From Candidatus Omnitrophota bacterium (GTDB taxonomy: Bacteria > Omnitrophota > Gorgyraeia > Gygaellales > Profunditerraquicolaceae), in NCBI GenBank assembly GCA_028715785.1, contig JAQURC010000002.1:140322-204321 (forward strand): a stretch of 64,000 bases of DNA, read 5' to 3'. The translations under genes were made by a program, and so were the position numbers. Below are positions 30,253 through 31,424 of the stretch, piece after piece. A model generated the notes under the pieces. The model had not been told where the DNA came from and searched no databases. It saw only the letters and a list, made by a program, of their open reading frames with translations. Each line of letters begins with the position of its first letter. The stretch's first letter is position 1.

Positions 30253-31350
30253 GTGAATACGTTAGTCCGTAAAAGTGTTTTGGATGTTAAGCCCTATGTC
30301 CCCGGCAAGCCCATTGAGGAGACCAAAAGGCAGTTGGGGTTAAAAGAAGTAATCAAGCTGGCTTCGAATGAAAATCCCTTCGGCCCATCGCCGAAAGCGG
30401 TTGAGGCAATGAAAAAAAGTTTAGCCGGAGTCAACCGCTATCCGGACGCTCAGGGATACTATTTAAAGAAACGCCTGGCCAGGCATTTTGGGTTACTGGC
30501 GGAAAATTTCCTCCTGGGTAACGGCTCCGATGAAATAATCGATATTTTGATCAAGACTTTTGTGGAGACGGATGAAAATATCGTAACCAGCGATACGACT
30601 TTTCTTGAATACGAGATTATCGCCCAGGTCAACAGCCGCAAGGTAAAAAAGGCGCCTTTGCGGTATTTTAAATATGATTTAGGCGCAATGTTGAAGCTAG
30701 TCGATAAAAAAACTAAACTGGTTTTTATTGCCAATCCCAATAATCCTACCGGCACCTATGTTACTAAATATGAAGTTGCGGATTTCCTGAAGGCATTGCC
30801 CGGACAGGCCATCGTTGTTTTTGATGAAGCCTATAATACTTTTATTGATGTGGATGATTATCCGGACAGCCTCGATTACCTTAGAAGGAAAAACAAAGTG
30901 GTTATTCTCAGGACTTTCTCCAAAGCATATGGCTTGGCCGGATTACGGTTGGGATACGCGATTGCCGATCCGCAATTGATTTCTTATATGGAAAGGGTGC
31001 GCCAGCCGTTTAACGTCAATATCCTGGCCCAGGCAGCGGGCCTGGCGGCGATAGATGACAAGGATTTTTTAAAGAAAACCCGGCGGATGACTTTAGAAGG
31101 CAAGGATTTTATTTATCGAGAGTTGTCTAAGATGGGTTTAGGGTATGTGCCTTCAGCGGCAAATTTTATTTTGATCGATGTAGAGAAAGATAGCCGGGAG
31201 GTATTTAAATCCATGCTTAAATTCGGAGTTATTGTCCGGGAGATGAGCCAATACGGCCTTAAGAATTTTATCCGCCTGACTATCGGCAGCCAAAAAGAAA
31301 ACCGCAGGGCAATATCTGCCTTAAGAAAAGTTTTAACACCCCGCGCTTAG
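30253..31350 (+). CDS. hisC: Histidinol-phosphate/aromatic aminotransferase (class II PLP)
   Basis: KLASNENPFGPSP and the PLP-lysine region FSKAYGLAGLRLGY. Sits between pheA and a DAHP synthase. The stop codon lies inside repeat copy B1. Confidence 0.75.
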   Translation: MNTLVRKSVLDVKPYVPGKPIEETKRQLGLKEVIKLASNENPFGPSPKAVEAMKKSLAGVNRYPDAQGYYLKKRLARHFGLLAENFLLGNGSDEIIDILIKTFVETDENIVTSDTTFLEYEIIAQVNSRKVKKAPLRYFKYDLGAMLKLVDKKTKLVFIANPNNPTGTYVTKYEVADFLKALPGQAIVVFDEAYNTFIDVDDYPDSLDYLRRKNKVVILRTFSKAYGLAGLRLGYAIADPQLISYMERVRQPFNVNILAQAAGLAAIDDKDFLKKTRRMTLEGKDFIYRELSKMGLGYVPSAANFILIDVEKDSREVFKSMLKFGVIVREMSQYGLKNFIRLTIGSQKENRRAISALRKVLTPRA

Positions 31351-31424
31351 TGGAATTGCGCGGGTATGGCCTTGTGGCCAACACCCCGCGCTTAGTGGAA
31401 TTGCGCGGGTATGGCATTCTGGCC
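31335..31424 (+). repeat. Two tandem 45-nt copies (B1, B2) of the double-hairpin repeat, spanning the hisC stop and the 5' leader of the DAHP synthase gene
   Basis: B1 (31335-31379) and B2 (31380-31424) differ at 2 positions within the loop of the second hairpin. Each contains CCCGCG-N13-CGCGGG plus a short GGCC-loop-GGCC hairpin. Both are related to copy A at 26679. Confidence 0.7.

Follow-up and report, generated by a model that had tools for sequence, protein, structure and literature searches.

The small dispersed repeats (SDRs) of Nostoc are reportedly mobile hairpin repeats of less than 50 nt, with no known enzyme, that are found inserted in one another. Repetitive extragenic palindromic (REP) sequences and REPINs, in which an inverted REP doublet forms one long hairpin, are mobilised by REP-associated tyrosine transposases (RAYTs) of the Y1, IS200-like type (Bertels & Rainey 2011, PMC3116915; REP-RAYT structure, PMC3479197). 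Hairpin elements have also been described in mitochondria, including the yeast GC clusters such as GC42 (PMC4478555), the double-hairpin elements of Allomyces mitochondrial DNA (mtDNA; Paquin et al. 2000, as cited in PMC4478555) and the hairpins of sponge mtDNA (PMC2800124). Here we analysed a 64,000-nt stretch of contig JAQURC010000002.1 from a Candidatus Omnitrophota bacterium (the window) carrying a repeated element of two hairpins, H1 and H2, which often sits directly before a Shine-Dalgarno sequence (SD). Comparison of the window with related loci (designated by L and a number) led us to regard the element as probably a lineage-specific insertional family of Omnitrophota, REP-like and mobile, whose H1 is probably read by a trans-acting factor. 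Empty and filled orthologous sites, nested and tandem copies, decayed remnants and strong stem covariation carry this reading.

Results

Double-hairpin copies in the window

The window contained four double-hairpin copies at three sites, namely copy A, the tandem pair B1/B2 and the diverged copy C (bit scores are from the covariance model described below):

26680-26727, + strand: copy A, between rnpB (26324-26664) and yebC (ATG 26738); 49.2 bits, E 1e-9
26682-26712: H1 of copy A, bulged C at 26684, loop 26692-26703 (TTATAAGGTATT)
26714-26725: H2 of copy A, GCCC-TTGT-GGGC, followed by SD GGGAGG at 26727-26732
31335-31380, + strand: copy B1; 55.5 bits, E 5e-11
31338-31365: H1 of copy B1, bulged C at 31339, loop 31347-31357 (TTAGTGGAATT)
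31348-31350, + strand: hisC stop codon TAG, within the H1 loop of B1
31367-31380: H2 of copy B1, TGGCC-TTGT-GGCCA
31380-31425, + strand: copy B2, tandem duplicate of B1 with 2 nt different in H2; 36.6 bits
31383-31410: H1 of copy B2
31412-31425: H2 of copy B2, TGGC-ATTCTG-GCCA, adjoining the aroF SD AAGGAGAG (31425-31432); aroF ATG 31438
50439-50482, + strand: copy C; 25.9 bits, borderline against controls
50442-50466: H1 of copy C, compensated arms CCGGCGC/GCGCCGG, short 8-nt loop
50468-50482: H2 of copy C, TGCGC-TTTCT-GCGCA
50438-50440: tsaD stop codon TAA, overlapped by copy C
50482-50488: SD AAGGAGG of an mgtC-family gene (ATG 50493), adjoining copy C

Copies A, B1 and B2 were each predicted to fold as two hairpins and fell into one family when the repeats of the window were grouped; for B1/B2, TRF reported a period of 45 nt and 2.0 copies (31335-31426). 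The pattern ACCCCGCG-N(8-22)-CGCGGGT matched three times in the window and not once in 100 shuffles. An earlier note on this DNA had located A, B1 and B2 correctly, counting three copies and missing copy C. The 13-bp spacer that it gave for H1 holds for B1/B2 (13 nt) and not for copy A (14 nt), which a fixed N13 pattern misses. It had also placed the ends of the copies 8-12 nt before the ribosome-binding site (RBS), whereas H2 of the window copies lies 0-1 nt from the RBS and 10-12 nt before the start codon, B1 instead being followed by B2. Its proposal that B1 supplies the end of hisC proved right, as the gene finishes ACA CCC CGC GCT TAG, and these last four codons and the stop come from B1.

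Control loci carrying exact H1 arms by chance scored up to 25 bits in the covariance model. Copy C is accepted as a family member from its full architecture and context, not from its score, because its H1 arms are compensated, its H2 is clean, it overlaps the tsaD TAA, and AAGGAGG and an ATG follow directly.

Flanking genes were confirmed by Pfam in the window, where the gene downstream of copy A matched YebC, the hisC product matched Aminotran_1_2 and the gene downstream of B2 matched DAHP_synth_1, as an aroF-type DAHP synthase; the RNA gene upstream of copy A was Rfam RNaseP_bact_a (26324-26664). The window copies themselves had no Rfam match, at gathering score or at E up to 10, and neither a promoter-like nor a terminator-like site was predicted in them. 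The tandem pair was predicted to be able to take a nested alternative fold: in the minimum-energy fold of 31337-31426 (-45 kcal/mol), the two units do not fold independently, and each arm of B1 is paired with the opposite-side arm of B2 (left with right, right with left).

Structure and covariation of the unit

The anatomy of the element was derived from 63 aligned copies, and a covariance model built from related copies found 63 + 10 copies. The unit is ~45-48 nt long, with H1 and H2 in fixed order. H1 is a 9-bp GC-rich stem consisting of C-G, A-T, an invariant bulged C and then 7 bp, with a conserved loop of 11-12 nt (YTWAT.NGGWATT), a spacer ranging from 8 to 14 nt across copies and a G(T) linker on its 3′ side. 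H2 consists of 5-6 bp of nearly any sequence, always paired, with a closing T-A and the loop NNGT or TTTCT. The H1 arm occurred as CCCGCGC, CCGGCGC, CTGGCCC, CTGGCGC or CCCAGCC, each matched by the opposite arm. Several variants can coexist in one genome, and compensated variants were found inside single genomes in the window (C versus A and B) and at L011, L028 and L060.

Standard pairs made up 99.3% of cells, compared with 80% in shuffles and 33-57% with slid partners; the alignment was fitted to the covariance model and hence leans towards structure, but the margin is very large. Double-sided changes occurred in 10 of the 14 pairs, and all six H2 pairs covaried. The earlier note had taken the covarying stems to imply selection for structure, and with ~70 copies compared the case for such selection has become very strong. 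On the sense strand of the element, 10 G.T wobbles were counted against 3 A.C mismatches, weak evidence that the element's own strand is the folding one, as RNA or as single-stranded DNA (ssDNA). The conserved bulge, loop and linker exceed the needs of a bare hairpin, which suggests a specific trans-acting factor. Covariation between the H1 and H2 loops, as in a possible pseudoknot, was not visible by eye.

Copies from the SO_2017_LW4_142 and SO_2017_GW1_19 isolates (L050:3748-3842, L065:2612-2700, L101 and L118) had 5-nt H2 loops, TTTCT and TTGCT. They lie mostly away from an SD, often antisense or in longer spacers, with partial copies present, and may form a sublineage that behaves more like REPs.

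Evidence for insertion

Scanning metagenomes with AroF gave 80 loci (75-90% identity), comprising 436 kb. The hisC-aroF junction was empty in ~70 of the 80 relatives and held one to several copies or a remnant in the other 10. At empty junctions hisC runs through the SD and ends at, or overlaps, the aroF ATG (for example ...GTGCTTAAGGAGAGGATCTGATG); at filled junctions the insertion lies at the 5′ edge of the SD. The HisC C-terminus, TPRA before the stop in the window, is GRKY or KERI in relatives. Bearers were dispersed over the AroF tree, and sister pairs disagreed (L132/L120, L136/L138 and L140/L145). Beyond this junction the covariance model detected no element elsewhere in the 436 kb of AroF loci.

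L208 and L209, the closest relatives found, share 88% nucleotide identity with the window over 13-20 kb, and both lack an intact copy. Neither has an insertion in the yebC leader (ttaaagag^gaggaagttATG), and the hisC-aroF junction of L208 retains a solo left arm, CATCCCGCGCCTAA, joined to AGGAG, as in L123; L136 likewise holds a decayed or solo-arm remnant. At 77% nucleotide identity to the window, L210 and L211 carry a degenerate copy before yebC. The converse case was observed before an acsC-like gene, where the window is empty (52420-52440) and L055 and L103 are filled, at slightly different insertion points and with different loops and H2.

Nesting was seen for at least 15 copies, each inserted between ..RGG and WATT of a recipient copy's H1 loop; removing the inner copy restored the outer loop exactly. 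On the minus strand of L028 (55-236), a three-level nest with three H1 arm variants was followed by a fourth copy in tandem. As such loops are a tiny fraction of a genome, the H1 loop is a strongly preferred target. Tandem copies have the same H2, indicating local duplication. Near-identical subfamilies (for example CACCTGGCCC...TTCGCCnGGTGGCGAA) stood at unrelated loci of different species. Orthologous sites that are empty in some genomes and filled in others, together with nested copies, tandem copies and decayed remnants, indicate that the unit is an insertion.

The 5′ flank of the copies followed W-R-R, with a purine at -1 in 93% and at -2 in 77%, and the 3′ flank was GGAG at SD sites and AATTGCG at nested sites. 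Neither a fixed tetranucleotide target nor a constant target-site duplication was found among the copies, flanking direct repeats being 0 to 4 nt long and absent at nested sites. A search for shared extended 5′ flanks, as co-mobilised sequence, gave none that was convincing. Some pairs of filled and empty sites showed a ragged 5′ boundary, with 6 extra nt at yebC and ~20 nt in L210.

Distribution and gene context

When one genome per species was searched for CACCCCGCG-N8-15-TGCGCGGGT, at least 118 loci matched. Among the matches listed (118 loci), 72 were GC-rich chance matches in other phyla and 46 had the family loop and the second hairpin; these 46 came from at least 34 assemblies and were labelled Omnitrophota/Omnitrophica (40), 'uncultured Planctomycetales' (5) and 'Deltaproteobacteria' (1). 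In viral contigs the H1 pattern matched nine times, never with the family loop or H2, and no phage source was found there. Exact-protein look-ups for YebC, AroF and P0001 returned no record. YebC matched, at 100% identity, a protein from a metagenome-assembled genome (MAG) of a 'Candidatus Omnitrophica bacterium', and the window at 46-58 kb was syntenic with two loci of Omnitrophota MAGs at 65-90% amino-acid identity. The element was not found described in the literature on Omnitrophota motifs, hairpins and repeats, on Velamenicoccus or on intercistronic stem-loop repeats and, as far as we checked, the family is previously undescribed.

An SD and a same-strand open reading frame (ORF) followed the element at 37 of 57 sites. 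In 26 of the 35 SD-linked copies, 0-3 nt separated the last paired base of H2 from the core of the SD, the rest being inner members of nests or tandems. Orientation was sense at ~45 of the 57 sites, and ~11 sites were antisense to the local coding strand or stood between convergent genes; about two-thirds of sites were sense-oriented with H2 adjoining an SD, and about one-third were not beside an SD. On the upstream side, a stop codon often lay 0-6 nt before H1 or within the H1 loop. The copy at L076:5791-5836 is antisense and lies between two minus-strand genes; an inverted element pair in L076 encloses ordinary genes (phoU-, nadE- and lrp-like by eye) and no transposase. In a test of replication-linked orientation, GC skew tracked the coding strand, with antisense copies on the C-rich strand. 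The downstream genes, from translations read by eye, were unrelated housekeeping genes, including purB, pgm, gdhA, glnB, ndk, glyA, rpsF, rplF, pgi, argH, aroC, clpC, pstS and others. Two loci had additional sequence before the SD: at L102:2968-3045 an intact element was followed by a solo extra H2-like hairpin (GTGTTGGCCTCGTGGCCA), and at L103:5518-5590 ~70 nt more of hairpin-rich sequence separated element and SD.

A second palindrome family

The sole Y1_Tnp gene found in our screen of Omnitrophota loci (L028:5651-6142, PF01797, E 8e-17) was flanked by another palindrome, GGGGACAGTTCTA / TAGAAACGGTCTAG, and not by the double-hairpin element. At L028:5560-6300 (Omnitrophota MAG JAPLLV010000065.1), this 163-aa IS200-like, RAYT-like protein is encoded between inverted arms of the second family (GGGGGACAGTTCTA..., TAGAAACGGTCTAG). 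This arrangement suggests that a REPIN-RAYT system exists in Omnitrophota, separate from the double-hairpin element and tied to the second palindrome family.

The window also holds this second, unrelated family, as long perfect palindromes with arms GGGGACGGTTCTATTTTT / AAAAATAGAACCGTCCCC:

40722-40803: second-family palindrome, with an extra inner palindrome centred on GTTTAAAC
44079-44178: second-family palindrome, with an extra inner palindrome centred on GTTTAAAC
61410-61448: second-family palindrome

Its arms matched six times in the window against 0.12 expected, the ssDNA fold z-scores were -7 to -11, and the family looks REPIN-like. At the tsaD-mgtC junction the window has a double-hairpin copy (50439-50482) and L103 a second-family palindrome (3473-3518), so that in related genomes two repeat families use one intercistronic spot.

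Elsewhere in the window, two adjacent tRNA genes at 25019-25180 lie upstream of the rnhA-like/rnpB/yebC region, and gene order across ~16.7-37.5 kb is collinear with L208 and L210.

Discussion

Proposed mechanism

In the reading we prefer, that of a mobile family, H1 would be the recognition module for a trans-acting factor, and H2 would need only to form a hairpin. Copies would be gained at purine-rich spots with a W-R-R 5′ flank, through a protein that recognises H1 in its ssDNA or RNA form, and would then duplicate in tandem, insert into the single-stranded H1 loops of other copies and decay by deletion. In compact operons they would survive mainly where 45 nt do little harm, namely in the gap from the upstream gene's end to the following SD, and in sense orientation. 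At hisC-aroF, insertion would have swapped the last four hisC codons, provided a new stop and parted two genes that abut or overlap in most relatives.

Two readings of the targeting remain: insertion is directed to exposed purine tracts (SDs and H1 loops), or insertion is less specific and selection keeps the least harmful copies. Under the latter, where the genes of an operon abut or overlap, a copy would do least harm immediately ahead of the SD, oriented such that its loop is unable to pair with that SD.

The mRNA would contain two stable hairpins and an unpaired SD, an arrangement that may uncouple translation or shield the ends of mRNAs. REPs that lie near stop codons have been reported to affect termination of the upstream ORF; by analogy, effects of the double-hairpin element on mRNA stability or upstream-ORF termination are plausible. 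A bolder version of this mechanism is possible, though we hold it doubtful: H1, with its bulged C, loop and ..RGG/WATT breakpoint, would be the substrate of a new enzyme, separate from REPIN-RAYT, that writes 45-nt modules beside RBSs, and some copies may punctuate operon mRNAs. In such co-opted copies the upstream cistron would be capped at its 3′ end by H1 and the downstream cistron at its 5′ end by H2.

Several points weigh against a mobile family. Transposition is read from its outcomes and not from a mechanism, the copies sharing neither a fixed target nor a consistent target-site duplication. The search for an enzyme that mobilises the element found none: among 1,598 ORFs in ~0.84 Mb of Omnitrophota loci, a crude screen for HUH/Y motifs gave the one Y1_Tnp described above, in a small sample, and a RAYT link of the element may exist elsewhere. 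The strict SD abutment and the sense bias (~45 of 57 sites) would suit a host function too, as would the intact pairing of orthologous-looking copies at gdhA (L015/L106) and hisC-aroF (the window, L129, L134 and L153). The patchy presence could result partly from recombination between lineages or from repeated precise loss. Every comparison uses MAG and metagenome fragments, and the loci of the genome scan are lower bounds that give no copy number per genome.

Alternative explanations

The earlier note had named a small regulatory RNA, a transcription-factor operator and a REP-like mobile hairpin as candidates. It held that the family would fall if no further copies existed in the genome and if the element was not conserved upstream of yebC and aroF orthologues in relatives; many further copies exist, and conservation upstream of those orthologues was not seen. 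The mobile hairpin gained support from the empty and filled sites, nesting, tandem copies and remnants.

Of the competing explanations, the one that survives best, though we judge it unlikely, is a cis-acting RNA of the host, serving as operon punctuation or RBS insulator, whose spread would be secondary. A factor would bind or cut H1 or the H1-H2 linker, leaving H1 as a 3′ protective hairpin and H2 as a 5′ hairpin on the SD; or the SD would simply be kept unpaired. The sense-biased orientation and the position of H2 within 0-1 nt of the SD in 23 of the 35 SD-linked copies would fit this function, but about one-third of sites are away from an SD, ~11 are antisense, and selection can also account for the SD abutment, given operons that leave almost no space between genes. 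H2 pairing is kept without sequence, as a purely structural 5′ hairpin would need, the bulged C and loop are conserved as in protein-bound hairpins, and the sense-strand excess of G.T wobbles (10 versus 3 A.C mismatches) points the same way. Copy A parts an RNA gene (rnpB) from an mRNA, and many downstream genes look highly expressed (rpsF, rplF, gdhA, glnB and ndk, by eye). However, the element is dispensable, being absent from most hisC-aroF junctions and from the yebC leader of the 88%-identity relatives; decayed and solo-arm remnants are tolerated (L123, L136 and L208), and triple nests and tandem arrays are hard to square with regulation. Regulation at 5′ leaders, as the earlier note had it, is also at odds, as the element's reason for existence, with the unrelated downstream genes and with the yebC and aroF leaders of relatives, most of which are without the element.

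Passive, enzyme-free spread is considerably less probable. It supposes that the hairpins stall replication and that copy-choice or slippage at SD-like microhomology (AAGG in the 5′ flank, the H1 loop and the SD) copies the unit, while the reverse event deletes it. The last 2-4 bases of the 5′ flanks are indeed purines, often identical to the first bases of the SD that follows the element (AA, GG, AGG, GGA or AAGG), the 5′ boundaries are ragged at yebC and L210, the L208 and L123 remnants resemble deletions between the loop TAAGG and the SD AAGGAG, and SD homology would account for both abutment and sense orientation. It leaves unexplained, however, why the bulged C never varies and why the linker and the 3′ half of the loop are conserved, as well as the one exact position of all of the at least 15 nested insertions, which lack 3′ microhomology, and the near-identical subfamilies at unrelated loci in different species.

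An operator family for a dimeric DNA-binding transcription factor, to which the 7-bp inverted H1 arms with their 13-bp spacer, highly conserved in the majority subfamily, would lend themselves, is wholly improbable, as a duplex-DNA operator is excluded by arms that change by compensation within one genome (CCCGCGC, CCGGCGC, CTGGCCC) and by an H2 that covaries freely without conserved sequence, and as the spacer varies from 8 to 14 nt, the downstream genes are unrelated, many sites between cistrons leave no room for a promoter and the window copies have no predicted promoter-like site.

Other identities were tried and rejected. A riboswitch or leader RNA does not agree with presence at 10 of 80 aroF orthologues, absence from the yebC leader of L208/L209, unrelated downstream genes (by eye) and the lack of an Rfam match; an intrinsic terminator does not agree with the lack of a terminator-like prediction at the copies and with AGGAG, rather than T's, after H2. 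Integron attC sites were dismissed, as no R''/R' core sites (RYYYAAC...GTTRRRY) were visible and the flanks are syntenic housekeeping genes (hisC, aroF, yebC and tsaD). A classical miniature inverted-repeat transposable element was set aside, as the unit lacks terminal inverted repeats (its ends are CAC... and ...H2) and there is no fixed-length target-site duplication, and CsrA-type GGA sites were set aside, as the loop is often GGT or TTG. SD/anti-SD mimicry, a promoter, a recombinase core site, small ribozymes and tRNA-like punctuation were dropped on sequence grounds.

Significance

Omnitrophota are uncultivated, and their gene expression and genome dynamics are known from sequence. The double-hairpin family is a clean marker across the phylum; its structural covariation is unusually strong, and it stands in an exact, recurring relationship to the RBS. 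It remodels gene ends by creating new C-termini and new stops and by separating genes that abut or overlap in relatives. Screens for RNA motifs and annotation pipelines could take the element for a regulatory RNA. Should H1 be recognised by a dedicated factor, the family would define a new mobile-repeat system. The natural hairpin-hairpin-SD cassette would also be of interest for the design of insulated bacterial operons.

Comparison with known systems

The Nostoc SDRs, which reportedly measure 21-27 nt, belong to another phylum, have other sequences and are said to show neither a two-module architecture nor SD abutment. Like REPs and REPINs, the double-hairpin element is a short GC-rich hairpin repeat of extragenic space, present in many copies and often located between cistrons or by stop codons. 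Short imperfect palindromes recurred in extragenic space at a minimum of 46 loci in at least 34 species-level genomes, with several copies per locus, and as in REP/REPIN populations they formed coexisting subfamilies per genome, clusters by insertion into or next to copies, tandem arrays and decaying singlets. In contrast to the REPIN, an inverted REP doublet (PMC3116915), the unit has two different hairpins in fixed order, and its copies are direct tandems (B1/B2 of the window, L057 and L062) or same-orientation nests (L028, L031, L040 and others), with no inverted doublets seen. Unlike REPs, about two-thirds adjoin an SD in sense orientation, and no GTAG-type 5′ motif was seen; unlike REPIN-RAYT systems, the Y1_Tnp locus seen in Omnitrophota is flanked by the other palindrome family, which the window also contains. 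Miniature elements derived from IS200/IS605 likewise have hairpins at both ends (here H1 5′ and H2 3′) and lack terminal inverted repeats, but insert 3′ of a fixed tetra- or pentanucleotide, whereas the 5′ flank here is only W-R-R.

The yeast mitochondrial GC clusters are similar in being ~42-45 nt long, GC-rich in an AT-rich setting and built on a constrained hairpin; as for GC42, presence varies between close relatives, copies are single and tandem, and the flanks are purine dinucleotides (the AG target in GC42). GC42 differs in being organellar and of unrelated sequence, with a defined AG target duplication and no link to an SD (PMC4478555). The Allomyces elements, as far as they are described in PMC4478555, and the sponge elements (PMC2800124) are likewise tiny, fold as one or two hairpins and are taken as mobile from comparing related genomes; both lie in intergenic spacers and sometimes alter gene ends, although their hosts are mitochondrial and their sequences unrelated. 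Sponge double hairpins are tandem insertions of single hairpins (PMC2800124); in the Omnitrophota element, by contrast, H1 and H2 belong to one fixed unit and are constrained differently. By analogy, the element appears to work like REPs and REPINs, mitochondrial GC clusters, double-hairpin elements and cyanobacterial SDRs, as a tiny, structure-constrained repeat that comes and goes between relatives.

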